From Nitrospirota bacterium (GTDB taxonomy: Bacteria > Nitrospirota > Thermodesulfovibrionia > UBA6902): a stretch of DNA of 64,000 nucleotides. The stretch's first letter is position 1. Each line of letters begins with the position of its first letter. Positions 5,674 through 45,763 of the stretch are shown piece by piece. The stretch covers positions 3,501 to 67,500 of the forward strand of contig JBDLIC010000001.1 of NCBI GenBank assembly GCA_039715075.1, given 5' to 3'. The translations under genes and the position numbers were made by a program. The notes under the pieces are model-generated. The model worked only from the letters and a program-made list of their open reading frames with translations, was not told the origin of the DNA and did no database searches.

Positions 5674-7038
5674 TCAGACTTTTAGTTCTTTCCACCGCCC
5701 CTTTCTGAAACGTATTGTCATAACAATACCCTGAAAGTGCATAGATATAACCATGGCAATCCAGACACCAACTGCGCCGTAGCCGGCAGTGACAGCGAGC
5801 AGATACGCGAGCGGCAGACGGACTATCCATAGAGTGCTTACTATGACGATCATAGTACCTTTTGTATCTCCCGCCCCCTGGAGGCATCCTCCAAGAATAA
5901 GGCTGACTGCCATCAGAGGTTCGGAGAGCATCATGATCCTGAGATACCGGGCCGTCTCATCAAGAACATGACTGTCCTTTGCAACAATAGAAGAAACTTC
6001 AGCTGCCCATATAAACACAGGCAGCGCCATAAGGGTGACAAACGCAACCCCTGAATAAGATATTTTCCAGCCGATCCTCTCTGCCCTCCCGGGGAACCCT
6101 GCACCCAGATTCTGGCCGGTAAGCACGGACGCAGCCATGTTAAGAGCAAATATCGGGAGATATATCAGCGCCTCGATTCTGAGTCCGCTGGTAAGCGCCG
6201 CCATTGCGGTTATGCTCCCCTCCTGAAGACGGCCGAGGATGTTGTATAAAACGATATTGCCGGTGTTCCATGACACCTGGAGAAGGGCCGCGGGCCAGCT
6301 TAAATAAAATATCTTCCTGACCATATCAGCAGATACGTGCCAGTCTCCTGAAAATATATTTTTCCACCGGCTCCTCCTGAACAGAAAAATGCATATTATC
6401 ATACCTGCGGTCATGGCTATCGCGGTCGAATACGCAATTCCCCTGTACCCAAGCCCTTTAAAAGAAAAGATTCCGAAGACCAGAAGAAAATCGAGCAGAA
6501 TATTGATTACACTTACAAAGAACATCGCTGCAAGGGTAAGCTTCACCTCACCGCCAGAACGGAAGACCGCGTTTGAGATGATCACTATATAATTCGGGAC
6601 AAGGGCAACGGCAAATATCACAAAGAACTCCCCTGCAATTCCACTGATATCTCCGGAAAATCCTGCGAGGGTTATAAGCCTCTCATGAAACATAATTCCC
6701 GCTGCCATCAGGGCGAGGGCACATGCAGCCCCGAAGATCAGTGACTGTCTCGCCGTTGAGAGGGCGCTTCTGAAATCACCGGAGCCCACAGCCCTGGAAA
6801 GCATTGCCACGGTTCCTATGCTTATTGCATTAGCAACAATAATGATGAAAAAATAGAGTTCGCCGACAAAGCCTACTATGGCCTGAATTTCAGGGCCGAG
6901 AAATCCTGCCACATAAATATCGGTAAGACCCACAAGGAAATTTAAAAACATAACAAGCAGCATGGACCATGACATATGCCATATGTTCCTCCATGTACTT
7001 CCAGTTGTAAGATCTACCGCCGCTCCCTGCTTGTTCAC
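5674..7038 (-). CDS. MATE family efflux transporter
   Basis: The 454-aa product is a multi-TM protein with a MATE-like 12-TM repeat layout. Confidence 0.8.
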   Translation of the reverse strand: MNKQGAAVDLTTGSTWRNIWHMSWSMLLVMFLNFLVGLTDIYVAGFLGPEIQAIVGFVGELYFFIIIVANAISIGTVAMLSRAVGSGDFRSALSTARQSLIFGAACALALMAAGIMFHERLITLAGFSGDISGIAGEFFVIFAVALVPNYIVIISNAVFRSGGEVKLTLAAMFFVSVINILLDFLLVFGIFSFKGLGYRGIAYSTAIAMTAGMIICIFLFRRSRWKNIFSGDWHVSADMVRKIFYLSWPAALLQVSWNTGNIVLYNILGRLQEGSITAMAALTSGLRIEALIYLPIFALNMAASVLTGQNLGAGFPGRAERIGWKISYSGVAFVTLMALPVFIWAAEVSSIVAKDSHVLDETARYLRIMMLSEPLMAVSLILGGCLQGAGDTKGTMIVIVSTLWIVRLPLAYLLAVTAGYGAVGVWIAMVISMHFQGIVMTIRFRKGRWKELKV

Positions 7039-7212
7039 TTTGTCCTCCTCCTGTTACCGTTTCATTATATATTGATGCACTGCATTTGGTAAAAGGACCT
7101 GCAAGATCCATGATGTAGGGGCAGGTCTTGCGCCTGCCCTTTTTCAACCCTTCTCATAAGCCTTGAGCCTGGAGAAAATCCATGATATTATTCATTTAAG
7201 GGAGAAGTCTGA

Positions 7213-7968
7213 ATGTCGCATAAACATAAACACGGCCATCATCACGAAAGGATATCAAAAAGCAGGGAGTGGATGAAGACTCATAAGGACACTGACCGTG
7301 ACTCGTCTGCCAGAGATGCAAAACCAAAACTGGAGTTAGTCCTGAAGTGCGATTCTGCGGGAAGCATTGAGGCAGCCGCTGCCGCTATTTTGAATATAGC
7401 CAACGATGGAATTGATATAAATATCATAAACAGCGGAGTCGGCAATATAAATCATTCAGATATCTTAATGGCAAAAACAGGCAGCAGGCTCATAGCCGGT
7501 TTTCAGGTGAATGTGCTGCCGGGGATAGAAAAGGAACTGGATGAACACAATGTAGAAGTACGTCTTTATGACGTGATCTATGCATTAACCGCCGATATAG
7601 GAAACATAACGCAGAGCATAGCTCCCCATATTCCGGAGGAAGAAATTACGGGTACTGCCAAAGTAATAACCCTTTTTAAAAGCGTCCGCAAGGGGATCAT
7701 TATAGGTTGTGAAGTGTTAGAAGGCCAATTGTCTGTTCATAAACATTTCCGTATCATTTCCGCCATGGGCCCGGTTTATTCCGGCTCTATAGAATCCATG
7801 CATATAGAAAGCGCTTCTGTCCAAAAAGCATCACCGGGACAGCAGGTGGGGATAAAAATACAGAATTTCAACAAAGCAAAAACAGGGGACATTGTAGAAT
7901 GCTACCGACCGGTTGCTGCCGGGAAAAGCAAGGCATGGCAGTCAACAGGAACTGTTATCAGAAAATAA
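7213..7968 (+). CDS. stand-alone IF2 C-terminal-domain protein with a His-rich N-terminus
   Basis: Residues around 40-250 align by eye with IF2 domains C1-C2 (LVLKCDSAGSIEA…GFQVNV…IIGCEVLEG…GDIVECY). There is no GTPase domain. The N-terminus reads MSHKHKHGHHH. Confidence 0.6.
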   Translation: MSHKHKHGHHHERISKSREWMKTHKDTDRDSSARDAKPKLELVLKCDSAGSIEAAAAAILNIANDGIDINIINSGVGNINHSDILMAKTGSRLIAGFQVNVLPGIEKELDEHNVEVRLYDVIYALTADIGNITQSIAPHIPEEEITGTAKVITLFKSVRKGIIIGCEVLEGQLSVHKHFRIISAMGPVYSGSIESMHIESASVQKASPGQQVGIKIQNFNKAKTGDIVECYRPVAAGKSKAWQSTGTVIRK

Positions 7969-8098
7969 ATTACCTCACTAATGACAATACAGTCTCTATT
8001 CCCCTCTTTAGCAAAGAGGGGCCAGGGGAGATTTTTTAAAGAAACTTTTCGTAAAATCCCCCTTAATCCCCCTTTTCCAAAGGGGGAGACTTGAAAGA
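7960..8098. repeat. MITE-like palindromic repeat (family A), long copy
   Basis: The copy contains ttcccctcttt.gcaaagaggggc.aggggagattttttaaagaaa…aaaatcccccttaatcccccttttccaaagggggagacttgaaag. It is nearly identical to the copy at 25345-25477. Confidence 0.7.
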
Positions 8099-19821: not shown

Positions 19822-19940
19822 TACCTAATGACCTCCCCCTTTGGAAAAGTCGTAGATCCGATCCGGGGGGGATTGAGGGGGATTTTATGGAAATTTAATT
19901 TAAAAATCTCCCCTGACCCCTCTTTGCCAAAGAGGGGAAC
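19822..19940. repeat. MITE-like repeat family A (reverse orientation)
   Basis: The reverse complement matches the ttcccctctttggcaaagagggg…aaaatccccctcaatccccc…ttttccaaaggggg consensus. Confidence 0.65.
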
Positions 19941-22224: not shown

Positions 22225-22312
22225 CCTCCTTAAATCCCCCCTAACCCCCCCTTTTCCAAAGTGGGGAACTATGCAAGTCCCACTTTGGAAAAGGGGGATT
22301 TAGGGGGATTTT
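22225..22312. repeat. MITE-like repeat family A (short/inverted-dimer variant)
   Basis: The sequence reads cccctaacccccccttttccaaagtgggga…cccactttggaaaagggggatttagggggatttttt. Confidence 0.6.
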
Positions 22313-25344: not shown

Positions 25345-25477
25345 TAACTTTATTAATGATAATGCAATCTGTATTCCCCTCTTTGGCAAAGAGGGGCTAG
25401 GGGAGATTTTTTAAAGAAATTATTCGTAAAATCCCCCTTAATCCCCCTTTTCCAAAGGGGGAGACTTGAAAGGAGAA
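25345..25477. repeat. MITE-like repeat family A, long copy
   Basis: It is near-identical to the 7960-8098 copy. Confidence 0.7.
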
Positions 25478-25698: not shown

Positions 25699-27024
25699 TC
25701 ATGGATATATGGCATTAAATAACCTATTTGCCCGTTCATTATCAAGGTCTTTCAGTGTCTTGTATTCATCTAAGGCAGAACCCTGATCATCTTCTAAAAT
25801 ATAAATAAGACCAAGCTTAAAGTGTACCTCTGCATCATCAGGTTTAAGCCTGATTACCTGTTTGTAGGCATCTACTGCTTCCTGATACTTACCTAAATCT
25901 GCATAGGCAAGACCAAGATTATTGTGTAGAGTTGCATCATCAGGTTTAATCCCGATTGCCTGCTTGAAAGCATCAATTGCTTCTTGATATTTGCCTAACT
26001 CTCCATAGGCAAGACCAAGATTATTGTGTACAGTTGATTGTTCAGGTTTAATCTTGATTGACTGCTTAAGGGCATCTACTGCTTCCTGATTTTTGCCCAA
26101 CTTCCAATAGGCAAGACCAAGATTAGCACGTGCTTCTGCATAGGCAGGTTTGATCCTGATTGTCTGTTTGAAGGCATCCACTGCCTCCTGATACTGGCCT
26201 GATTTAACATAAGCAGTACCAAGATTATTATGTCCAGTTGCATCATCAGGTTTAATTCTGATTACCTGCTTAAAGGCATCTACTGCCTCCTGATACTTGC
26301 CCAATTTCATATAGAGTACTGCAAGATTATTGTGTGCATTTGCATGGTCAGGCTCAATCCTGATTGCCTGCTTGTAGGCATCTTCTGCCATCTGATACTT
26401 TCTCAAATCCTCATAGGAAATTTCAAAATTATAGTGTGCGACTAAATAATCAACAGGTAAAATCTTGATTGCCTGTTTGAAGACATCCTCTGGCTCCAGA
26501 TACTTGCTCAATCTCCTATAAGCATTACCAAGCATATTGTATGCATCTGCATGGCCAGGTTCAATCCTGATTGCCTGCTTGAAGGCATCCACTGCCTCCT
26601 GATACTTACCCAATTTCATGTAAGCAATACCATGATTGTAATGTGCATTGGCATAATCAGGTTCAATCCTGATTGCCTGCTTGAAGGCATCCACTGCCTC
26701 CTGATACTTGCCCAACTTCCTATAGATAAAACCAAGACTATAGTGTGCTTGTCCATAATCGGGATCAATCCTGATTGCCTGTTTTAAGGCATTTACTGCT
26801 TCCTGATTTTTGCCCAAATTCCCATAGGAAAGACCAAGATTGTAGTATGCGTCGGCATCTTCAGGTTCAATCCTAATTACTTGTTTGTAGGCATCTACGG
26901 CCTCTTGATGCTTGCCCGATTCAGCATAGGCAAGAGCAAGTTCAAAATAATAACCTTCATCCTTCATCTGATTATTAGCCTTGTCTGAATCAGCAAAGGC
27001 AATAGATGTGATAATAAATACCAA
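25699..27024 (-). CDS. TPR-repeat protein with about 12 near-identical 34-aa units; secreted
   Basis: The 102-nt units are almost identical at the DNA level. The listed start is TTG. A signal peptide (KRNFVFVVLIFLVFIITSIAFA) lies in frame just upstream, so the true start is a few codons earlier. Confidence 0.7.
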   Translation of the reverse strand: MVFIITSIAFADSDKANNQMKDEGYYFELALAYAESGKHQEAVDAYKQVIRIEPEDADAYYNLGLSYGNLGKNQEAVNALKQAIRIDPDYGQAHYSLGFIYRKLGKYQEAVDAFKQAIRIEPDYANAHYNHGIAYMKLGKYQEAVDAFKQAIRIEPGHADAYNMLGNAYRRLSKYLEPEDVFKQAIKILPVDYLVAHYNFEISYEDLRKYQMAEDAYKQAIRIEPDHANAHNNLAVLYMKLGKYQEAVDAFKQVIRIKPDDATGHNNLGTAYVKSGQYQEAVDAFKQTIRIKPAYAEARANLGLAYWKLGKNQEAVDALKQSIKIKPEQSTVHNNLGLAYGELGKYQEAIDAFKQAIGIKPDDATLHNNLGLAYADLGKYQEAVDAYKQVIRLKPDDAEVHFKLGLIYILEDDQGSALDEYKTLKDLDNERANRLFNAIYP

Positions 27025-27271
27025 GAAAATGAGAACAACGAAGACAAAGTTTCTTTTAATAAAAATAGATTCATTTTCTTAACCTTTTTTGAAAACAAAT
27101 AACCAATATACTAAGACTTTCAAGTTGAAGTCGATAACAACATGTACGCATCACTGACGAGTGCCGCTCAATCATAAAAACATGCCTGAAACTGTTTCTG
27201 CACGCTTCATCACAATGCAAGCCCAAAAGTGTCCTGCGGCACTCATTTATATGTCGGATAATTGTGTGCTG

Positions 27272-28276
27272 TCATGCGGTCAACAGTTTTTCAAGTAGTG
27301 CTTTGGTTGTTATTACTGCTTTGTATGTCTCATCACTTGAAGCTTGCTTCAACACATGAACAGCAGCATTTCGTTTCTTTCTGATTTTATCCGCCTTTTT
27401 TGCTTCGCCGTCATCTAATATTTTCTCTATTCTTGCATTTTCAATTAGCACTTGAAAGTCTTTCTCCTTAAAACCTTTCAATCCTTTGCTCTTATCAATA
27501 TCATAAACAAGTTTGTGGTCTTTTCTTAACAACACCTGCTTGAGAATCGCTTCAAGAATTGAACAACTCAAAATCAATGAGGCAGTATTAAGGCCATGGC
27601 ACCATGCATCCATTGCTTGCTGAAAATAGGTTCTTATTTCGTTGTTTGGTCTTACGGTGATGAATGTTGGCTTAATCATTTTTACTCTTTCAATGTAGTC
27701 TCCAACAATATTAACCATTAGTCCAGAAAAACCACCAGAAAATATTTCATCAGATAGTTCATCATAACTTATATTTTCCCAAAGGTCGTCGATTGCCACG
27801 ATCGCATCTGACATTAATTCAGAGTCCTCAAAATACAAGAAATCGCCCGGATGCCACATAAGATGTTTTACAATTTCTTTAGCATATTCACTTACTTCAT
27901 CTGAGTATTTAAAAAAAGAATCAGGTGTAGCAGTTTTTGATTTATATTCTTTGTGAAGGTCAACTAAACCCTTAATGGTTATTACGAGCGGCTCAGAAGT
28001 AGCATCAACACCTTCATGAAATCTAAGCCCACCAAAAGCGACAAGATAAACAGTAGACCGGCACTTCTGGCAACGGATTTGTTTTGTAATCTCTAAAGCA
28101 GTTTCCGAGAATACCTTCAATTTTTCATCGTTTGAAAAATCTTTGGGTTCGGCATTCAATTTATCTTTTAAACTCTGAAATATAGGATGTTGCTCGATAA
28201 AAAATGTATATTTGCATTTCTTGCATCGAAACTCGAACAATTGAGCCTCCATTAGGCTTTCTTTTGAATCCAGCAA
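27272..28276 (-). CDS. Zn-ribbon protein with a C-terminal HEPN-like (DUF4145-like) domain
   Basis: The N-terminus has CKKCKY…CQKCRS. The C-terminal helical region ends with …KIRKKRNAAVHVLK…, an R-N-x3-H HEPN motif. It overlaps the upstream gene by 25 nt. Confidence 0.45.
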   Translation of the reverse strand: MLDSKESLMEAQLFEFRCKKCKYTFFIEQHPIFQSLKDKLNAEPKDFSNDEKLKVFSETALEITKQIRCQKCRSTVYLVAFGGLRFHEGVDATSEPLVITIKGLVDLHKEYKSKTATPDSFFKYSDEVSEYAKEIVKHLMWHPGDFLYFEDSELMSDAIVAIDDLWENISYDELSDEIFSGGFSGLMVNIVGDYIERVKMIKPTFITVRPNNEIRTYFQQAMDAWCHGLNTASLILSCSILEAILKQVLLRKDHKLVYDIDKSKGLKGFKEKDFQVLIENARIEKILDDGEAKKADKIRKKRNAAVHVLKQASSDETYKAVITTKALLEKLLTA

Positions 28277-28560
28277 ATGTATTGCCGATCTATTTCAACT
28301 AGACTATCAAGAGATAAGTCTTTGTATTGCATATCTGAAGGAATAAAATCAGTAATTACCGCGATAAAGGTATTTTCTGATGTCTTGTCTTTTATTGTCA
28401 TCTCTATTTTATTACCTTTATAAAAAGCAGATACGAAATGTCCAATATCAACAGGTCCATCAATTGAAGAGAATATGTCACTGGTATTATTGCCAGTATA
28501 TTTTTGCGTGATGCCCCGACGTTCGCAAGTGTCCCATTTTAGTTTCTTGATTTCAGTCAT
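28252..28560 (-). CDS. hypothetical protein (operon member)
   Basis: A 102-aa ORF with no recognisable motif. Confidence 0.45.
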   Translation of the reverse strand: MTEIKKLKWDTCERRGITQKYTGNNTSDIFSSIDGPVDIGHFVSAFYKGNKIEMTIKDKTSENTFIAVITDFIPSDMQYKDLSLDSLVEIDRQYICWIQKKA

Positions 28561-28593
28561 TATAATGCCTCCAAACGATCCATTAGTTCTTTC

Positions 28594-28944
28594 CTATTGC
28601 CTTATCAGGCCATGCCTTGTCCGATAATTATAAACAGCCGTCTGAGCTTGTCTATATCCAAACCCAAGCCTTTCCAGGTGGTGTATACAATCCATTGGCG
28701 CTTTCGTTTGGGCATTGAACTCACTTAGAATTTGATCATATTCTTCGCGCGACCCTCTACGGGATGAAATGATATTTTCTCCGTGATACAAATATACATA
28801 AGCCCCATTCTTCGCTTGCCCTCTGGTGGTCCCAGCTTCCATGAGTAGCCGTTCACATTCTGATTGCGAAAGCCCCAGAGTCATAGCATCGTGACTATCG
28901 AGAATACGAATGTATTCTTCCTGTGTAAATCTCTTGGTTTGCAT
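28594..28944 (-). CDS. hypothetical protein (operon member, possible HTH)
   Basis: A 116-aa ORF. Confidence 0.45.
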   Translation of the reverse strand: MQTKRFTQEEYIRILDSHDAMTLGLSQSECERLLMEAGTTRGQAKNGAYVYLYHGENIISSRRGSREEYDQILSEFNAQTKAPMDCIHHLERLGFGYRQAQTAVYNYRTRHGLIRQ

Positions 28945-28973
28945 GACGTTACCCCCTCCTCATAATATTTTAT

Positions 28974-29477
28974 TTACAACTCGTTCACAGTCTTCTTCAT
29001 TTGGTCTTTAAGGACATCGACTGCGACCTTAACGAGCACCTCTTCAGGCTTACTGTCTAATAGGTGAGCCAGAGCTCTCAGAACATCCGAATCACCTTTC
29101 CGCAACCGAACAGTATAGGTGACATATGTGTCTAATTTTTCAGGAGTTGAGTCACTTGTAGCACTATTACTCGTTAGCTTGGAGAAAAAGTCGTTTATTC
29201 TGTCATGGTAGAAACTTGACGTCTTGCTTAACAACTTGTTGCACAATTCATTTGTGTCGCCCTCTAAACTAGCTTTGAGCATCGTTTTGAATTCCCCTAC
29301 ATCAAGATCAAGCCTTCTCGCACAAGCGTCACCAATAGTCTGGTAGGCGACTGCGCACTCTTGAGAAACTCGGCTGACTCCATATTGGTAAGAACGATCA
29401 ATTCCATCTCCAAGACTGTAACGTTGAGCGGCCACCGAAATGACCTTCATAATTTGATCTAAAGTACCCTGTCTCAT
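28974..29477 (-). CDS. hypothetical protein (first gene of operon)
   Basis: A 167-aa ORF. Upstream is an AT-rich region of about 200 nt. Confidence 0.45.
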   Translation of the reverse strand: MRQGTLDQIMKVISVAAQRYSLGDGIDRSYQYGVSRVSQECAVAYQTIGDACARRLDLDVGEFKTMLKASLEGDTNELCNKLLSKTSSFYHDRINDFFSKLTSNSATSDSTPEKLDTYVTYTVRLRKGDSDVLRALAHLLDSKPEEVLVKVAVDVLKDQMKKTVNEL

Positions 29478-30114
29478 GACTACCTTTCACAATATTGCCT
29501 TACGTTATCGTAAGGCCTATATAAGATAATAAAGGTATTTAAGGTTTTTGTCAATATAAGTATTTAGAGCATAACGGAATCAATAAGATATTGACATCCT
29601 CTCTGCCTTGAATGACTAAAAAACCCCTGTAATTCATGCCGCACAGGATGGCACCTCAATAAATCTCCTCCTGCAAAAACATCTTGCTTTCAATATATTA
29701 TTGCAGTGTACTCGAAATTATCCTCGGAATATTTCGAGAGGTATGCTATTTTGGATGAGAGAAAAAGAAAAAGTCGGTGTCCTTGTTGGAAGATTTGAGG
29801 ATGCCGATATATTAGAGGAAGAGAAAAGCCGAATTTATCTATTACCGTACTGGATGATTTGAGGCGTTTGACACTCCAACAGCTAAAGCCAATTGGATTC
29901 TCAGATGATTTTATAAAAAAGAAGGCATTATTGAAACTGTTTTTTGCATTTAGTGGCACTATATGTAAAATGCTATTATGTATTACCATAATATTGGGGT
30001 TGAAAAGATTACATAAGGCCTGGACAAAAAGATCTCTTGTCTGGCTTTCTGGTGTTCGATAAGAATGAAGACTCCCAGCCGCAGAGACAGCGGGGTATCG
30101 TTAGGTAAAAAAAC

Positions 30115-30175
30115 TATTATTTTAAAAAATCCCCCCTCGCCCCCCTTTTCCAAAGTGGGGATTAAGAGGAAACCC
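30115..30175. repeat. MITE-like repeat family A (short copy)
   Basis: The sequence reads aaaaaatcccccctcgccccccttttccaaagtgggga. It is flanked by the near-identical decamers gcagagacag and gcagagactg. Confidence 0.6.
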
Positions 30176-38985: not shown

Positions 38986-39291
38986 ATGGAGGTTATCATG
39001 AAATCTGTAACCTTAGTTTTTGCTGCGCTGTTTTTATTAGTGTCTTTTTCTTTATGTCTTGCACAGGAAGTATCTCTTGAAGAGGCCTATTCTCTCTACT
39101 ACAAGGGAGAAAAAGATAAGGCCATAGAATTAATGGAAGACCATGTGAAAGATAATCCTGATCCGGGGATACTCTATTTTCTTGGATATGCTTATTATGA
39201 GATGAAGCAAATGGACAAGGCAAGGGAATATTTCACAAAAGCCTATAAGCACAAAGATTTTTTCAGTCCCATGTCCAAAGAAACGGATTAA
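38986..39291 (+). CDS. small secreted TPR-like protein
   Basis: It has a signal peptide and one TPR-like unit. Confidence 0.5.
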   Translation: MEVIMKSVTLVFAALFLLVSFSLCLAQEVSLEEAYSLYYKGEKDKAIELMEDHVKDNPDPGILYFLGYAYYEMKQMDKAREYFTKAYKHKDFFSPMSKETD

Positions 39292-39395
39292 AGCCACAGC
39301 AGGAAAGCAGGGAAATTGGAAGTTTGAAAGTGCACAAACAAAGAAGCTGATTAATGCACCCCCTATTTCTACAATAATTCTTTTACTGTTATAAT

Positions 39396-40205
39396 CTAAG
39401 AAAGAATATTATCATCCAAGAGAAATTTATCAATTTCATTGAAAATTTCTTCCTTATCAAAAGGTTTCACAATATAGCTGTTCGCTCCAGCTTTCAGGCA
39501 GCAATCTCTTTCTTCCTCCAGGTCCTCGGCAGTGACAGCTATTATCGGAATCTCAGGGTTAAAGGCCTTGTTCTTGGAGTTCCTGATCGTTTGGGTAGCT
39601 TCAATCCCGTCCATTTTTGGCATATGCACATCCATTAAAATAATATCAAATGGCTGTTTCTTTAGACCTTCAAGAACTTCTTTACCATTATTCGCGACCT
39701 CTACTGCATAATCCTGTCTGTCCAGCATGCAGAGTGCCTTTTTCTGATCAGCAATATTATCTTCAGCAAGAATTATATTTACCTTTTTTCTGTCTCCATA
39801 ATTTATTTGATTATATAAAGACCTGCATTCATGTTTACCATTACCGATAGTAAGCTCTTGTTTAACCAATTCAGGAGCATAACTTAAAGATTTGATAAAT
39901 TCCTTGTATCGTGGAGAAGGGTCCTGAATTTCAATACCCAGAACTTCTGTGTTGTTATTACATGGAGATATAAAAAACCACTTTATTTTACAGGTCAGAT
40001 TTATTGTTTCAGATGAAGGAATTTTAAAATAAATTTCAGCTTTTTTTTCAGGTTTAAAATCTTCCGTGACCTTAACCAAGAAGGTCATCAGATATTCATT
40101 ACTTTCCGTAGAAACATTCTCTATATATCCATCATAAGTTTTCCCTCCAAAGATAATTGTTGCATATAGATTGACAGTCATTTTCTCAAAAGTCCTGTTC
40201 TCCAT
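39396..40205 (-). CDS. PilZ-domain plus response-regulator receiver protein
   Basis: The C-terminal REC domain has an ILMDVHMP phospho-acceptor context, and the N-terminus is PilZ-like. Confidence 0.65.
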   Translation of the reverse strand: MENRTFEKMTVNLYATIIFGGKTYDGYIENVSTESNEYLMTFLVKVTEDFKPEKKAEIYFKIPSSETINLTCKIKWFFISPCNNNTEVLGIEIQDPSPRYKEFIKSLSYAPELVKQELTIGNGKHECRSLYNQINYGDRKKVNIILAEDNIADQKKALCMLDRQDYAVEVANNGKEVLEGLKKQPFDIILMDVHMPKMDGIEATQTIRNSKNKAFNPEIPIIAVTAEDLEEERDCCLKAGANSYIVKPFDKEEIFNEIDKFLLDDNILS

Positions 40206-40679
40206 ATCTACCCCCCTTTTTTTCTGTAATTATTAAAATCACTCAAAACTAAACCTGCAGAGTCAAGTGATTTAGCTAATTAACTTTCATATCGGATTTT
40301 CAAGGATTTTCTTGAATCTTTTTGGAAATGATATACCATTCAAAAAAGACAGGAAGAACCTGCAAGCAGCATTGTTTCCGGGGCGGGGGGGGTATAACCC
40401 TTAATTTCTATTGAGAAATTTGATATACCTGGTTCAGCAAATATTTGATATTTTCAAGGTAAGTTGTTCAGGCGAATTTTAACTGCTCCGCTCTTTTCAC
40501 ATTTTCCATTTTAACTCCTCCGGCATCACTACCGACAAGTTCTAAATGAAAAAGTCGCTTATTTTGGAAAAAATCATTGGTTTTTCCCTTAATGATAGTT
40601 CCATCTTTAAATCTCGCTACTACTTTGTTTAATAACATAATAGTATCCCTTAAGTTTCTTTATATAAATTATATTTCTC

Positions 40680-41726
40680 TTAACTCTTGTCTGATAATTT
40701 CGGTTCAGGAATTATTTTTCTTTTTACCTTTATTGCGACCTTAATATCTTTTCTTTTAGCCAGACTTATAATTAAGCTGCCTTCAGGTATTTTTCTAACT
40801 TTCTCATTAAAATATCCATCTTCTGTTTTTACCCAGCTTTGGTTATAGTTCTTTCCCATCCATATACCAATTTCTTTGCCTCCGAACTGTTTCCCGTCCT
40901 TTAATTGAGCTATAACTTCAATTTCATCGTCAATTCTGATATCATCTTTTGCAAATTTTATCGCCCTAATTTGACCAAATTCATTTTCAAAAGCATCGTT
41001 AAAAGTAAAAGTTTTCTCAAAAACAACTTTTATGGAAGGAACACTGAAAACATTAGCAGATATTTCCTGCCTGATATCTTCCATTACTTCTTCTTTCAGA
41101 TTTTCACATTGCGGGCCCGGGCACTTATTGGAAGAAAGTTTTAATACTTTATACGCTGCCCGTTTCTGCCGCTGATTATCACCTTTAGCATAGAAAATGC
41201 TTTTTGCGTAATATTCAGCATTGCCGGTCGCATCACCAAGAGAAACAAAAAAATTATATCCTTCATCCTGACCTATACTCGTATCAAATGTCACCGCCTT
41301 TTCAAAATAATCGCCCGCTGTCGGATAGTCTTCTTTACTGAATGACCAGTTAGCAATTTTCCTGTATTCATGTCCTATCTCGTCTCCATAATCCGGATTC
41401 AGCTTATACGCACTTTTAAAGACTTCATCTGCACTCCAGAAGTTGTCGTTATTTATGTACGCAATACCCAGCAGTAAGTGAATTTCTGCATTTGCGAGAT
41501 TTTCTAAAAGTGCTTTTTCCAGTAGACTGACGGCCTGTGGATATTGACCGGCTTCCATAAGATTTTTGCCTTTTTTCAGATTTTTTCCCATCAGCGCATT
41601 GCTCTGGGACACAGAAATAAAAAGAATAAAAAAGCAGATTATAAATAAAAGACCTCTTTTCTTTATCTTATCCATACTCTCATCTCCCATGAATACCCTG
41701 CATATATTATTGTTTTGACAATGCAA
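40680..41726 (-). CDS. TPR-containing protein (Tad locus accessory)
   Basis: The probable true start is the internal MDKIKKRG… with a signal peptide. Confidence 0.55.
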   Translation of the reverse strand: MHCQNNNICRVFMGDESMDKIKKRGLLFIICFFILFISVSQSNALMGKNLKKGKNLMEAGQYPQAVSLLEKALLENLANAEIHLLLGIAYINNDNFWSADEVFKSAYKLNPDYGDEIGHEYRKIANWSFSKEDYPTAGDYFEKAVTFDTSIGQDEGYNFFVSLGDATGNAEYYAKSIFYAKGDNQRQKRAAYKVLKLSSNKCPGPQCENLKEEVMEDIRQEISANVFSVPSIKVVFEKTFTFNDAFENEFGQIRAIKFAKDDIRIDDEIEVIAQLKDGKQFGGKEIGIWMGKNYNQSWVKTEDGYFNEKVRKIPEGSLIISLAKRKDIKVAIKVKRKIIPEPKLSDKS

Positions 41727-42663
41727 TATTATTTACTTCTTTGGCATTCACAATATTTTCATGGGCCTTAACATAAAATCTGCTGTTTAATTCTTGAGCT
41801 TTTTCAAAAGCCTGAACAGCTTCACCATACTTACCTTCAATCATGTAAATATATCCGATATTATTGTAAGCGGAAGCGTTATCTCCGGCCTTTTTGAATG
41901 CCTCGACAGCTTCATCGTATCTTTCCAGCTTGCTTAATGACAGGGCTAAATTGTTGTATGTTTTTGTTTTGGTCCCATCATGCTCCAGTGCTTTCATATA
42001 TGAATCCAGGGCATTTTCATATTCACCGTTAAAATAGTATGACATTCCCAGATTGTTGAATAAAGATCCATCGTCAGGATTAAGGGCAATAGCAGTTTTA
42101 TATTCCTGTATGGCAATTCCATATTCCTTCTGACGGTCGTATATTATTCCAAGAAAATTATGGACCTGCCACAGTGTTGGATCATGACTTACAGCCAGAA
42201 TAAAGTTTTTTTCTGCCTCCTCCAATTTGCGCATTTTAAAATATGCCCTTCCCATTCCCTCAAATGCCAGGGAGTTTTCCGGATCAGATAATAAAACATC
42301 CTGAAAAATTCTGATTGCCTGCGCATACAGTCCTTTCCTCAAAAAGAGACGTCCCATTTTGTCTCGTACAGCAGTATTTTCCCTTTCCAGGCGCAGAGCC
42401 TTATTGTATTGTATGAAGGCCTTATTTATGTCTCCCTGTCTGACATAGTTGTCTCCCAGCCTCTCATGTTCTTCAGCCTTAATTGCAGGCAGTTTTCTGG
42501 CAATCTTTTTCTGCTCGGAGGCAGAAGCTATTTTTTGCTGCCGTTCCATCATAATTTCATACTGGCTTTTCTTGAAAAGACCCTGCATATCCTTCATCGA
42601 ACTGCAACCCGATAAAACTATCATTATGCAAATGGTAAAAACACATGAAATAAATACTCTCAT
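41707..42663 (-). CDS. tadD: TPR lipoprotein, TadD-like
   Basis: It has a lipobox LSGC and multiple TPRs. Confidence 0.6.
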   Translation of the reverse strand: MRVFISCVFTICIMIVLSGCSSMKDMQGLFKKSQYEIMMERQQKIASASEQKKIARKLPAIKAEEHERLGDNYVRQGDINKAFIQYNKALRLERENTAVRDKMGRLFLRKGLYAQAIRIFQDVLLSDPENSLAFEGMGRAYFKMRKLEEAEKNFILAVSHDPTLWQVHNFLGIIYDRQKEYGIAIQEYKTAIALNPDDGSLFNNLGMSYYFNGEYENALDSYMKALEHDGTKTKTYNNLALSLSKLERYDEAVEAFKKAGDNASAYNNIGYIYMIEGKYGEAVQAFEKAQELNSRFYVKAHENIVNAKEVNNIALSKQ

Positions 42664-43769
42664 GTCTTATTACTCCCTTCATCAAACACATTAAACAGTT
42701 TTCTTACAAATGAGAAAAGCGTCTTTTTTCTGGATGTTAAGCCCTTTTCAGTTGACTTTAAACCAGGTCCGTATATTGGTTTACCGAATAATAACTTCTC
42801 TTTTTTCTGTATTAAATCAGGTCCATATATTGGTTTACCGAATACCAACTTCTCATTTTTCTGTATTAAGCCAGGTCCGTATATTGGTTTACCGAATACC
42901 AACTTCTCATTTTTCTGTATTAAGCCAGGTCCGTACATTGGTTTGCCAAATACCAATCTCTTATTTTTCTTTATACGAGAGATTACTTTTCTGCTTTTAC
43001 GGTAATTATCAGTTTCAGGTATTATCTTTGTTGAGTCAATCCGTGAGATAAGAGTTTCAAAGGAAGTATCAACAGTCAAGTCATTTGAAGAACCTTTTTC
43101 TACTTCAGGAGCTAAATATTTTTCGTATAGCATCCTCTTGAAATTATAGCGAGCAGCTTCTCTGTTTCCAGCCAATCTGAATTCATCAACAGCCTGTTCA
43201 AATTTGTGATGCTTTGTATATGCCAGGCCCAGGTTATTGTGGTATTGCTTATTTCTGTTATTTAAATCTACAGCCTTCTCTAAAAACATAACAGCTTCAT
43301 CATATTTTCCCTGAAGTATATAAGAGTACCCCAGGTTGTTCAGAGCATAATCAAGTTCAGGATTCAGAGTAAGAGCATTTTTGTAATAAGCAACAGCTCT
43401 GGAAAAATCGCCTAACTTGTCGTAAGAGACTCCGATTCTATTGTATGCCTTCACATAAGCAGGATCAATTGATATTGTTTTTTCAAGCTCCTCAATAGCT
43501 TCTTGATGTCTGCCCCTCTCCTGGTAATATTTTGAAAGCAGGTAATGTGAGTCAGGATTACCCCTTGCCGGTCTTATAGACACACCAAAATCTGCTATAT
43601 CTTTGTTTGAAATCCCGGTCTTTATGTTTGAATAGTCCGAAAACTGAAGACTGCTAAATATGTTTTGAGTGGTTGAACAACCGGTAAGAAAAACAAGAAA
43701 AACTCCTATAACAATCAAACCTCTGATACCTTTATCTTTTATTTTTCTTTTTTTCATTCTGTCTCCCAT
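42660..43769 (-). CDS. TPR lipoprotein with four tandem 18-aa repeats
   Basis: The repeat unit is LVFGKPIYGPGLIQKNEK. The corresponding 54-nt DNA tandem repeats lie at about 42765-42980. Confidence 0.6.
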   Translation of the reverse strand: MGDRMKKRKIKDKGIRGLIVIGVFLVFLTGCSTTQNIFSSLQFSDYSNIKTGISNKDIADFGVSIRPARGNPDSHYLLSKYYQERGRHQEAIEELEKTISIDPAYVKAYNRIGVSYDKLGDFSRAVAYYKNALTLNPELDYALNNLGYSYILQGKYDEAVMFLEKAVDLNNRNKQYHNNLGLAYTKHHKFEQAVDEFRLAGNREAARYNFKRMLYEKYLAPEVEKGSSNDLTVDTSFETLISRIDSTKIIPETDNYRKSRKVISRIKKNKRLVFGKPMYGPGLIQKNEKLVFGKPIYGPGLIQKNEKLVFGKPIYGPDLIQKKEKLLFGKPIYGPGLKSTEKGLTSRKKTLFSFVRKLFNVFDEGSNKT

Positions 43770-43812
43770 TATCTATATTTATATGCTAAGCAGATTTACT
43801 CCCGTCTTTTCA

Positions 43813-44787
43813 TTACCCTCCAAGGTAAGGGAACAAATTCCTGTATATCCTTATTGCCGCAGGCCCCAAAAGCACAACAAATAATGATGGAAAAATAAAA
43901 CATATTAAAGGGAAAACCAGTTTTACAGGCAATTTGGCAGCAATCTCTTCAGCCATCTGATGCCTTTTGTCTCTCATTGAATCAGAATGCACTCTTAGAG
44001 CCTGGGCAATACTGGTCCCAAACCTGTCAGTCTGTATCAACAGACTTATCAGGCTGTTCACATCTTCCAGATCTATACGCATTGCAAGATTTCGCAATGC
44101 TTCACGGCGTGTTTTTCCTGCCCTCAATTCCAGGCTCAAGAGTTTAAATTCCCCGCTTATTACTTTATTTTTCAGCTCGATCTCTCTCCCGGCCCTGAAT
44201 ATTGCTGCATCCAGTCCCATACCCGCTTCTACACAAACAACCATCAGATCAAGAGCATCGGGAAATCCTTCCAGTATCTTCCTCTTTCTTTGGGCAGTCA
44301 CCAGTTTGAGCCAATAATTAGGGAGGAAATAACCGATTAAAGCTATCACAATAGAAAACGTCATAAAACTAACAAAGGGCATTGCCTTGGTAAGAAAAAC
44401 TTTAAAGAAAAGAAGGCCTACAGGCAGAAGTATGGCAAGAAGGACTTTCATGCCATAAAAGATCATCATGGCATTGCTTTTCCTGTAACCGGCCCGAACA
44501 AGACCCTTTTTCATCTTATAAATGTCCTGTTCACCTTTTGGTTTAATGAGGCTGCCAAGAGGATCAACAAGCCTTAAAAAATATTTTTTAACAGAGCCGG
44601 CACCATCAGCATCTTTAGTTTTATCACCTGAATTCCCGCCTGAATTTAATCCTTCTGTTCCTCCCTTAATTTTTTCAATTAATTCACGCTGACTTTTGCG
44701 ATAATTATAGTAATAAAATATTCCTGATCCCAGAAACATGATTCCGGCAAATACTAAAATTGATATCAATAAAGCGGTCTCCGGCAT
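43813..44787 (-). CDS. tadC: Flp pilus assembly protein TadC (T2SS-F family)
   Basis: The product is a T2SSF-domain membrane protein. Confidence 0.8.
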   Translation of the reverse strand: MPETALLISILVFAGIMFLGSGIFYYYNYRKSQRELIEKIKGGTEGLNSGGNSGDKTKDADGAGSVKKYFLRLVDPLGSLIKPKGEQDIYKMKKGLVRAGYRKSNAMMIFYGMKVLLAILLPVGLLFFKVFLTKAMPFVSFMTFSIVIALIGYFLPNYWLKLVTAQRKRKILEGFPDALDLMVVCVEAGMGLDAAIFRAGREIELKNKVISGEFKLLSLELRAGKTRREALRNLAMRIDLEDVNSLISLLIQTDRFGTSIAQALRVHSDSMRDKRHQMAEEIAAKLPVKLVFPLICFIFPSLFVVLLGPAAIRIYRNLFPYLGG

Positions 44788-44797
44788 TTTTTCCTCC

Positions 44798-45763
44798 TTA
44801 TACCCGAATAGAAATCATTTTTTTCATAACAAGCGTTCCAATTATCATCATGACAACCGCTCCGGCCATCAGTATTTTCCCTATCGGATCGTTTAATAAT
44901 GGTGCAAGAAACTTAGGATTAACCATAAACATATATAAACTGATTAAAAAGGGAAGGGAGATGAGCACAGCAGCTGATAGCTTTCCTTCAGATGATAACA
45001 CACTTACGCGGCCCTGAAATTTGAATCGTTCCCTGATAAGATGACTGATCTTTTCCAGTATTTCGGCAAGATTACCGCCTGTTTCCTTCTGAATAATTAC
45101 CGAAATAACAAAAAAAGTAAGATCAGGACAATCGACCCTGTTTGTGAGATTTATTAAAGCATCTGAAACACCGACACCAAAGTTGATTTCATCCATAGTC
45201 TTTTCAAACTCAGTACCTACAGGGTCTTCAAATTCATCTGCCACCATCCGTATCCCTGCTGAAAACGCGTGCCCTGCTTTTAATGCCCGGACGATTAAAT
45301 CTAGCGCATCAGGCAGCTGTCTCTCAAACTTACTCATCCGTTTACTTCTCATGTAATATACATAAAGGAATGGCATGGTTGAAGCAACACATGCCAGAAG
45401 AGCAGCAATCAGAAAATTAACGGTAAGCAGCGAACCTGCCATATAACCGCATGCAGCAAACAACAAAGTAAGCAACAGGTAATATCCAACGGGATGACTT
45501 ATATTGGCCTGCTCCATTAAGCGTTCCAGTTGATTCACTACAGGGAAATTAAGAAGCATCCGGTTAAACCACGGCACATCACTCAATAAGCGCTTCCTGG
45601 CAATATCAATCTCTTCGCTCTTAAGACTTCCCGATGAGAGTGTCCTTAAACGTTTCTTGATCTTTTTTTGTTCTGGCTTCTTTCCTGTCTTCGAAATAAA
45701 ATAGACCCCTTCTGCCAGCAAGACAATTGTTAAGAATATTCCTACACCTATTATTATTTCCAT
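44798..45763 (-). CDS. tadB: Flp pilus assembly protein TadB
   Basis: The product is a T2SSF-domain membrane protein. Confidence 0.8.
   Translation of the reverse strand: MEIIIGVGIFLTIVLLAEGVYFISKTGKKPEQKKIKKRLRTLSSGSLKSEEIDIARKRLLSDVPWFNRMLLNFPVVNQLERLMEQANISHPVGYYLLLTLLFAACGYMAGSLLTVNFLIAALLACVASTMPFLYVYYMRSKRMSKFERQLPDALDLIVRALKAGHAFSAGIRMVADEFEDPVGTEFEKTMDEINFGVGVSDALINLTNRVDCPDLTFFVISVIIQKETGGNLAEILEKISHLIRERFKFQGRVSVLSSEGKLSAAVLISLPFLISLYMFMVNPKFLAPLLNDPIGKILMAGAVVMMIIGTLVMKKMISIRV

Follow-up and report, generated by a model that had tools for sequence, protein, structure and literature searches.

A tight four-gene block ending in a zinc ribbon-HEPN protein in a Nitrospirota genome: a probable mosaic of independently distributed units

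Introduction

Proteins of the HEPN superfamily are metal-independent endoribonucleases that act through a dimeric composite site and carry an Rx4H motif. Fusions of the HEPN-type domain DUF4145 with a zinc ribbon have already been listed (Anantharaman et al. 2013, PMC3710099). RAZR/PD-T7-4, the ring-activated zinc-finger RNase, has this architecture and is a single-gene abortive-infection RNase activated by assembly around phage ring proteins; its ZFD was superposed on a TFS/RPB9-type fold (Zhang et al., Nature 2026, PMC13017515).

Here we analyzed a block of four tightly spaced genes, designated A to D, in a stretch of 64,000 nucleotides (hereafter the window) of contig JBDLIC010000001.1 from a Nitrospirota bacterium. 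A sequence-only reading had presented the block as a candidate for one undescribed four-gene defence module. This central claim is unsupported, because A-B, C and D are distributed independently, D usually stands alone, the combination of zinc ribbon and DUF4145 is already known, and the argument for an island bordered by MITEs fails. We instead read the block, with a probability of about 60%, as a mosaic that is co-transcribed locally and whose three units are distributed independently of one another, rather than as a dedicated four-component system. The first unit would be a cassette complete in itself, with promoter, operator, A and B; the second would be C, of ~100 aa and from a small uncharacterised family; and the third would be D, of 322 aa and three parts.

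Results

Layout of the gene block and transcription signals

As had been described, the block contains four consecutive minus-strand ORFs, located at 28974-29477, 28594-28944, 28252-28560 and 27272-28276 and encoding proteins of 167 (A), 116 (B), 102 (C) and, as the longest ORF, 334 aa (D). The gaps of 29 and 33 nt between A and B and between B and C were also given correctly. The 25-nt overlap reported for C and D is probably not real, because D probably starts at TTG 28240 (322 aa), which places the two genes 11 nt apart. TTG 28276, the start of the 334-aa version, is a longest-ORF artefact, as public gene calls and all homologues begin 12 codons later. TTG 28240, which is preceded by GGAGG as the ribosome-binding site (RBS), is thus probably the true start, and the same TTG and RBS are in use in a locus where D occurs alone (L001). 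The genes and the signals at both ends of the block are as follows.

28974..29477, minus strand: gene A, 167 aa, with a 6-helix N-domain, a linker and a C-terminal ribbon-helix-helix (RHH) domain
28594..28944, minus strand: gene B, 116 aa, a small helical protein with two ~55-aa repeats
28252..28560, minus strand: gene C, 102 aa, of a small family of ~93-104-aa proteins, GC 0.34
27272..28240, minus strand: gene D, 322 aa, with a split Cys4 zinc ribbon, a helical middle domain and a C-terminal DUF4145-type HEPN domain; RBS GGAGG
29526..29554, minus strand: sigma-70-type promoter of A, TTGACA-17-TATTAT, 11/12 match
27228..27243, minus strand: possible transcript end, a weak hairpin followed by TTTTGGG, 30 nt past the D stop codon

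All four genes carry an RBS, that of D overlapping the 3' end of C; intergenic terminators are absent, and a single strong promoter lies upstream. In most of 19 related loci the TTGACA box keeps the same position upstream of A (-72 to -77), and the promoter probably serves all four genes in this genome. The weak hairpin and TTTTGGG downstream of D might possibly be the end of the transcript. The hairpin is also listed on the plus strand. Another promoter-like site (28654-28627, 11/12) lies within the conserved coding sequence of B and was not taken as a separate promoter for C and D.

Architecture of gene D and its HEPN assignment

The following parts were assigned within D.

28007..28240, minus strand: residues 1-78, zinc ribbon, C6xxC9 ... 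C57xxC60 with a two-helix insertion inside
27275..27643, minus strand: residues 200-322, HEPN (DUF4145-like) domain
27356..27373, minus strand: codons of the Rx4H motif, R290-N-A-A-V-H295, conserved in the family

The N-terminal CxxC...CxxC pattern that had been noticed in D was confirmed as C6/C9 and C57/C60 in the 322-aa numbering; within the D family C57/C60 never vary, and every full-length member has C6/C9. In the AF2 model of D, beta-hairpins are formed by residues 2-15 and 63-78, and helices in residues 19-54 split the ribbon. Its matches to known ribbons are weak, with Zn_ribbon_8 detected in 5 of 17 members (best E 1.9e-4) and TFS_arch at E 0.025, and the whole module is missing in the 222-251-aa relatives from KSB1, Sumerlaeota and Virgibacillus. 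Between ribbon and HEPN domain, residues ~84-195 form an extra helical domain of ~110 residues with no family assignment.

At the C-terminus, the four-helix up-down HEPN fold is present, and its last core helix opens with an Rx4-6H motif. The R-N-x3-H arrangement pointed out earlier holds throughout the family, RNAAVH being invariant in 17/17 relatives. Specifically, R290 and H295 are invariant and R287 and N291 are at least 90% conserved among the 17 family members, and R287, just upstream of R290, gives the Rx7H spacing of the DUF4145 signature R...N.AaH. An hhalign comparison with a canonical zinc ribbon-DUF4145 protein (E 0.002) set RKKRNAAVH on RFLGNEAAH with the motifs in register. D itself scored 19.1 bits against Pfam DUF4145 (PF13643), below the gathering cut-off of 23.1, and DUF4145 matches at E<=0.01 were obtained for 16 of the 17 family members (best 2e-7). 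Searches of PDB sequences with the D profile and the canonical protein returned nothing useful, and neither fold nor sequence searches brought up the RAZR structures 9Y9C and 9Y6U. D is a predicted RNase.

A screen against PADLOC-DB 2.0 gave no matches for A, B and C and only weak domain-level matches for D (DUF3644 at 5.7e-5; HEC-08, PDC-S64 and PDC-S19 at 2e-4 to 4e-3), so that within this four-gene block the components of its multi-gene defence system models were not matched. The PADLOC PD-T7-4 model (PDLC04109) did not match D, its HEPN domain taken alone or any of six relatives or neighbours at E<=1. As positive controls for this model, DUF4145 proteins from Bartonella and Enterobacter plasmids scored 1.7e-8 and 2.1e-5.

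Distribution and composition of the block

To test conservation of the four-gene neighbourhood, homologues of D, A and C were searched for and 74 loci of context were inspected; no second A-B-C-D locus was recovered. The four genes were seen together only in sequence of this organism itself, contig L004 being the same sequence. The promoter-A-B unit recurs without C or D in 14 other loci (near-identical duplicate contigs included), at least 10 loci (L001-L003 and L011-L017) have D but none of the other three genes, and C and D are seen together in only one other place (L018/L019). From 48 metagenomic and 6 other A loci, this organism's own contig L004 excepted, both C and D are missing. Furthermore, similarity at the DNA level ends precisely where the units meet: between A-B loci and the window it runs from 29579 to 28594, the match of the C-D locus L018 begins at 28573, and D-only loci match from 28254/28250 to 27262/27268. 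The impression of an AT-richer stretch was right for C (GC 0.34) and D (0.357) but not for A (0.437) and B (0.444), which match the window (0.426), and the GC of the whole block (0.388) is only at the 16th percentile among windows of the same size.

In the 10 homologous loci where D stands alone, which are most of its loci, it has 75-200 nt of its own upstream DNA. Genes for HicAB, NYN, an HsdR_N-like protein or a further DUF4145 protein accompany D in some loci, which counts for our reading, and several neighbourhoods consist of ordinary metabolic genes, which counts against it. The D family is small and patchy (Nitrospirota, KSB1, Sumerlaeota and one Virgibacillus), its genomic position is not conserved, and one copy is a frameshifted pseudogene (L013). 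No relatives of A or D were detected in IMG/VR viral contigs, and none of D in phage or plasmid records; this, too, speaks against our reading, as do the sub-threshold DUF4145 score of D and its lack of a match to the PD-T7-4 model.

Gene C and its relation to D

The C family comprises 30 cluster representatives at E<=1e-3, all full length, and C has no Pfam or PDB match. One copy, 81% identical, again lies immediately upstream of a D homologue (L018/L019). The junction is identical in both places of co-occurrence and the D RBS reaches into the end of C, so that C could be a functional partner of D; both observations count against the mosaic reading.

Taken further, C and D might be a two-gene toxin-antitoxin or sensor-effector pair that landed behind A-B, C neutralising or modulating the HEPN RNase D. 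We consider this doubtful. The otherwise different context of the second junction and the low GC common to both genes speak for such a pair, as does the finding that elsewhere D is often preceded by a different small gene (81-117 aa), one of them with a faint DUF2281 match. However, L018 and L019 are near-identical contigs and amount to one independent observation, C-family members at 39-51% identity are not beside D homologues, and C has no recognisable antitoxin or DNA-binding domain. Moreover, D is tolerated without C, because homologues at 77-79% identity stand alone in L001 and L003.

Genes A and B

A consists of an N-terminal 6-helix domain with no assigned function (aa 3-102), a disordered linker (aa 104-117) and a C-terminal DNA-binding domain with the RHH fold (aa ~118-166). 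It had been stated that no housekeeping family could be assigned, and for A, B and C this holds: none of them fits such a family in Pfam or NCBIfam. When every member of the A and C families was scanned against Pfam, the result was scattered noise only; no Pfam family covers A, and a PDB sequence search with the A profile yielded nothing useful. Upstream of A lies a putative operator.

29497..29516, no strand assigned: inverted repeat GCCTTACG-ATAA-CGTAAGGC, between the -10 box and the RBS of A

The family consensus of this element is TACG(T/A)(T/A)AACGTA. Of 19 regions upstream of A, 14 contain the pattern TACG-N1-4-ACGTA at -27 to -39; overall it is rare, with only 34 strand-counted occurrences in 412,690 bases of sequence examined. 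A may bind the palindrome in its own promoter and is a predicted autoregulator.

The two halves of B align with each other (29% identity, E 2e-4), and B belongs to no Pfam, PADLOC or PHROG family. B lies directly behind A (17-34 nt gap, 68-74% identity) in 14 loci, near-identical duplicate contigs included, that is, in 14 of ~25 close loci; it is missing from the remainder and from all distant A homologues.

It is unlikely that A and B form a type II toxin-antitoxin-like addiction cassette in which A is the RHH antitoxin and repressor, B the toxin, and C and D unrelated passengers. Most similar to the RHH domain of A are indeed the DNA-binding domains of antitoxins (TacA2, MazE4, ParD, FitA), the palindrome in the strong promoter is conserved, gene order and spacing are kept in the 14 loci, and A loci adjoin BrnT/BrnA, restriction-modification genes and transposases. 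On the other hand, B is missing next to roughly half of the close A homologues and next to every distant one, the RHH domain is C-terminal, unlike that of typical RHH antitoxins, and B resembles a duplicated helical binding module rather than any toxin family.

HEPN-type genes recur beside A, namely D here and other HEPN-like genes next to A-B in L021 and L024. The latter two loci count against the mosaic reading and hint that A-B and HEPN genes could be functionally linked in a looser way, which that reading leaves unexplained. A bolder proposal would make A part of an undescribed, widely distributed RHH regulator cassette, equipped with a conserved promoter and operator, where variable conflict genes land or by which they are controlled. 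C-D would then be a new two-component HEPN abortive-infection module, the RNase resembling RAZR but differing from it in structure, and C sensing for it or inhibiting it. We regard it, too, as improbable.

Genomic surroundings and the four-gene view

Two repeats had been taken as MITEs flanking an island.

25372..25461, no strand assigned: copy of a REP-like hairpin repeat (the former 'MITE'), outside the gene block
30116..30169, no strand assigned: second nearby copy of the same dispersed repeat

The repeat is real, but the two copies are not island borders: the hairpin element occurs at no fewer than five sites in the window, with further copies at ~8003-8086, 19836-19936 and 22232-22312, and is a dispersed REP-like intergenic repeat. 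The SNF2 helicase, cited as supporting context, is divergently oriented, lies 737 nt off and is missing in every related locus. Neither a tRNA nor any Rfam element was found near the block.

As for the original proposal that all four genes work as a single undescribed antiphage or abortive-infection system in which D is the effector, the tight spacing (29, 33 and 11 nt), the RBS of each gene, the one strong promoter, the lack of internal terminators and the HEPN type of the effector would all fit. Nevertheless, we judge it very unlikely and already largely refuted by the distribution, since the combination is confined to this organism and A-B, C and D are each found without the others; the homology breakpoints, the GC difference between A-B and C-D and the want of PADLOC matches for A, B and C point the same way. 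Least probable of all is that D, instead of being a conflict protein, binds or processes RNA as a HEPN protein with housekeeping or regulatory duties, or is catalytically inert, given its small, patchy family with unconserved position and one pseudogene, and its invariant catalytic R and H.

Discussion

Under the mosaic reading, A would most likely repress its own strong promoter via the conserved TACGTTAACGTA-type palindrome. In D, the zinc ribbon at the N-terminus and the helical middle domain would likely be the regulatory or sensing part, and D would probably be kept inactive normally, by analogy with RAZR/PD-T7-4 and other HEPN abortive-infection proteins. A trigger, for example a phage protein, might then cause D to dimerise or oligomerise so that two HEPN domains form the composite active site, and activated D would cleave cellular and phage RNA, stopping growth. 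Both the trigger and a role of D in defence are suggested by the same analogy, and any role for B and C would be equally putative.

The main value of this analysis is negative, in that a tight orphan operon ending in a HEPN protein is here not a conserved multi-gene system. Neither the A family (RHH plus a 100-aa domain without known function, with no Pfam family) nor the C family has been characterised, and both could receive names as new families. Current concepts are not altered by these findings.

Compared with RHH (CopG/Arc/MetJ) antitoxin-repressors such as TacA, MazE4, ParD and FitA, A likewise has a palindrome in its own promoter and an RHH domain closest to theirs. However, this domain follows a 100-aa helical domain without a clear structural match, and its partner gene B is not always present and resembles no known toxin. 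HEPN-MNT (HepT-MntA) type II/VII toxin-antitoxin systems differ in that no MNT gene adjoins D here or in any D locus, and no NTase domain was detected in A, B, C or the neighbours of D homologues; D is by contrast much larger and multidomain. With Pfam DUF4145 and HEPN_Swt1 (PF18731), D has in common the fold, the R...N.AaH/Rx4H motif and the zinc ribbon fusion, and both the DUF4145 family and D occur in variable, conflict-related contexts. The differences are the sub-threshold score of D itself and its middle domain, which is assigned to no family.

The closest characterised analogue of D is RAZR/PD-T7-4, and D, a predicted RNase, is of an already known kind. Both combine an N-terminal Cys4 zinc ribbon with a C-terminal DUF4145-type HEPN domain bearing conserved R and H, the ribbon end is the variable part of both families, and the weak TFS/RPB9-type match of the D ribbon concerns the same fold on which the RAZR ZFD was superposed. 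RAZR/PD-T7-4 is usually a single stand-alone gene, as is D in 10 loci, yet D follows C by 11 nt in L018 and here, where it is embedded in an operon. In RAZR, a protein of ~200 aa, the ribbon is joined by a short linker to DUF4145, whereas D has a split ribbon and a helical domain in between, and its 322 aa compare with 211 positions of the PD-T7-4 model. Because D fails this model, the RAZR mechanism applies to it by analogy only. If D is an active, trigger-gated RNase, zinc ribbon-DUF4145 defence of the RAZR type would extend to Nitrospirota and other uncultured sediment lineages, and with its different sensor architecture of split ribbon and extra helical domain, D could recognise different phage cues.

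Organisation of the four-gene block

The window derives from a Nitrospirota metagenome-assembled genome; A and C are identical to NCBI proteins ABFR82_00215 and ABFR82_00210, respectively, both from one 80.9-kb contig. Sequence reading gave the following features:

29554-29526, minus strand: promoter ahead of A, near-consensus TTGACA-17-TATTAT
29516-29497: 8+8 inverted repeat between promoter and A, GCCTTACG-ATAA-CGTAAGGC
29477-28974, minus strand: A, a ribbon-helix-helix (RHH) protein, 167 aa
28944-28594, minus strand: B, 116 aa
28560-28252, minus strand: C, 102 aa
28276-27272, minus strand: longest ORF covering D, 334 aa

The gaps of 29 nt (A/B) and 33 nt (B/C) noted in the sequence-only reading were correct, and a ribosome-binding site (RBS) precedes each gene. 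The 25-nt overlap of C and D was however not retained. The junction reads ...GCC TAA TGGAGGCTCAA TTG; the public gene call on the identical contig begins D at this TTG (322 aa), MF.FRCKKC is the N-terminus of all D homologues in the family alignment, and locus L001, where D stands alone, has the same TTG start with GGAG ahead. On these grounds, D is read as 28240-27272, 11 nt from C. No terminator-like sites were seen between the four genes, and a weak hairpin with a T-run lies downstream of D. A single A-B-C-D transcript in the window's genome is therefore plausible.

The DNA upstream of A was markedly conserved between loci, with TTGACA at -72 to -77 in most of 19 related loci. The palindrome TACG(T/A)(T/A)AACGTA was present at -27 to -39 in 14 of 19 A-upstream regions, mostly with an extra TACG nine bases upstream, and this pattern was nearly absent elsewhere in the 413 kb of collected sequence. 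A conserved promoter and a palindrome at a steady position would be the signature of an autoregulated repressor moving with its own promoter, as we predict for A. B is a tandem duplicate of a ~55-aa helical unit and had no family match; Pfam and PDB searches with C likewise gave no match.

The block is a mosaic

The four genes had been proposed to form one undescribed defence or abortive-infection module. When neighbourhood conservation was tested, A-B-C-D occurred together only in this organism's own sequence. The D family has few members (21 proteins sharing 55-100% identity, plus remoter genomic relatives, several without the zinc ribbon), and its hosts are Thermodesulfovibrionales, other Nitrospirota, KSB1, Sumerlaeota and one Virgibacillus MAG. 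A, B and C were all absent from each of ten D loci (L001-L003, L011-L017). The A family is far larger, with 67 close proteins of ~168 aa and relatives in 48 metagenomic loci at identities down to 26%; neither C nor D was found in any of these loci except the same organism's own 3-kb contig (L004). B directly follows A in 14 of the collected loci, and is missing from other close A loci and every distant one. A word-indexed search yielded only one C homologue, and an exhaustive HMMER search yielded 30 cluster representatives, all ~93-104 aa. An 81%-identical C copy (L018/L019) lies directly upstream of a D homologue with an identical junction, while C relatives at 39-51% identity adjoin unrelated genes (a zinc-ribbon protein and a Y1 transposase, with a TIR protein nearby).

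DNA alignments ended at the same seams. A-B loci aligned to 29579-28594, from the promoter through the B stop codon; the alignment of the C-D locus L018 starts at 28573; and D-only loci (82-83% nucleotide identity) aligned over 28254/28250-27262/27268. The block had also been described as AT-richer, which held for C (GC 0.340) and D (0.357) and failed for A (0.437) and B (0.444), against 0.426 for the window. These independent distributions, DNA-level breakpoints and base composition leave the single-module claim without support, indicating that the block is a mosaic of [promoter-operator-A-B] + [C] + [D], in which C and D probably arrived together.

Several homologues had features of their own. 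The C RBS and first ~54 nt (28579-28507) are 80% identical to L068 324-397 at the DNA level, where the C homologue is only 51% identical as a protein, so that this 5' end is unusually conserved. A 117-aa B homologue (L007 6524-6877, 70% identity) is uncalled in the public annotation of a 304-kb contig. Distant A-family members (L066 3176-4135; L040, L051, L056) are longer (228-351 aa), and their A N-terminal domain and RHH-like segment are fused to extra C-terminal regions, which makes the N-domain a reusable module.

Genomic context

The "MITE" flanking the block, with 49-nt arms that are 84% complementary, is a real repeat, built around the hairpin CCCCTTTGGAAAAGGGGG / CCTCTTTGGCAAAGAGGG (the core pattern matched 19 times; chance expectation, 0.5). 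It marks no island border, however, since at least five intergenic copies lie within the 64-kb window:

8003-8086, 19836-19936, 22232-22312, 25372-25461, 30116-30169: REP-like repeat, intergenic

No tRNA, integrase or Rfam element was found near the block. The SNF2/SWIM helicase, earlier noted as a neighbour, is divergently oriented and linked to A or D nowhere else; its only matches were to DpdE, ZorD and DrmD, through their generic helicase cores. In the 737-nt A-SNF2 spacer, the only ORFs are short, overlapping ones on both strands at 29600-30110 (99, 53 and 67 aa), with reading frames interrupted by stops; no gene is called there on the public contig, and the spacer may represent what is left of a decayed gene.

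D homologues occupy variable sites, some adjoining HicAB, NYN, an HsdR_N-like gene or a second DUF4145 gene. In Nitrospirae bacterium RBG_13_39_12 (L013 6001-6940), the homologue is frameshift-split into ORFs of 257 and 84 aa, flanked by a 333-aa HsdR_N-like gene and a HicB/HicA-like pair. Such sites and neighbours, with one frameshifted pseudogene, fit a gene with an accessory or conflict role, not a housekeeping role. A-B neighbours include restriction-modification genes, BrnT/BrnA, a RAYT transposase and an FRG protein, and two A-B loci adjoin other weakly HEPN-like genes. Specifically, L021 12-719 matched HEPN_RiboL-PSP (E 3e-3), L024 2544-3443 matched HEPN_Swt1/DUF4145 (E ~1e-3), and the 281-aa ORF at L024 5689-6534 carries the motif RRNELIH. 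The A-B cassette may thus associate with HEPN genes non-randomly.

Elsewhere in the window, a 441-aa TPR protein (25699-27024, minus) has about 11-12 consecutive 34-aa repeats, and its DNA holds eight in-register copies (102-nt period, 70-77% identity). A c-di-GMP-I-GGC riboswitch aptamer (Rfam RF03167) lies at 644-726, minus (65.7 bits; gathering score 59). The GC minimum (0.32-0.40) falls at 39000-45000, among co-oriented minus-strand genes of ~320-370 aa; as candidate foreign or variable DNA, this region makes a stronger case than the A-D block.

D is a HEPN protein

The window's D scored below threshold against DUF4145 (E 1.4e-3, 19.1 bits; cut-off, 23.1) and HEPN_Swt1. Among 17 family members, however, 16 matched DUF4145 (best E 2e-7) and 14 matched HEPN_Swt1. 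R290 and H295 of the RNAAVH motif were invariant across these members, R287 and N291 were at least 90% conserved, and when the profiles of D and of a canonical zinc ribbon-DUF4145 protein were aligned, RKKRNAAVH fell on RFLGNEAAH. The AlphaFold2 model of D (pLDDT 81, pTM 0.71) has three parts:

residues 1-78: zinc ribbon interrupted by two helices
residues 84-195: helical middle domain
C-terminal: helical domain

Family matches, motif conservation, profile alignment and the model together bear out the earlier HEPN call; a lack of HEPN fold or motif, which would have spoken against it, was not found.

Proposed mechanism and comparison with known systems

A likely acts as repressor of the shared promoter through binding to the palindrome. 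By analogy, it is moderately likely that D would be made at a low level and stay inactive until a trigger, and equally so that the trigger would drive HEPN dimerisation or oligomerisation via D's N-terminal modules, leading to RNA cleavage and growth arrest. C possibly modulates D. A HepT-MntA system was ruled out, as the MNT partner is absent.

Zinc ribbon + DUF4145 fusions were already catalogued in 2013 (PMC3710099). PD-T7-4 was characterised in 2026 as RAZR, a single-gene abortive-infection RNase that uses a variable N-terminal zinc finger to bind ring-forming phage proteins and whose DUF4145/HEPN domains are activated within a 24-mer (PMC13017515). The PADLOC PD-T7-4 model did not match D or its relatives, and did match positive controls, namely DUF4145 proteins of Bartonella and Enterobacter plasmids. 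Downstream of the D homologue in L003 (1.2 kb), a canonical double zinc ribbon + DUF4145 gene (6854-7600, 248 aa) encodes a protein 45% identical to the Enterobacter kobei plasmid DUF4145 protein that matches PD-T7-4, and this protein did not match the model either. D shares the zinc ribbon + DUF4145/HEPN logic of RAZR without detectable membership, and differs from it in that the ribbon is split and a further helical domain, of ~110 residues, is present; D is a novel member, with an architectural twist, of an already known zinc ribbon-DUF4145 HEPN kind.
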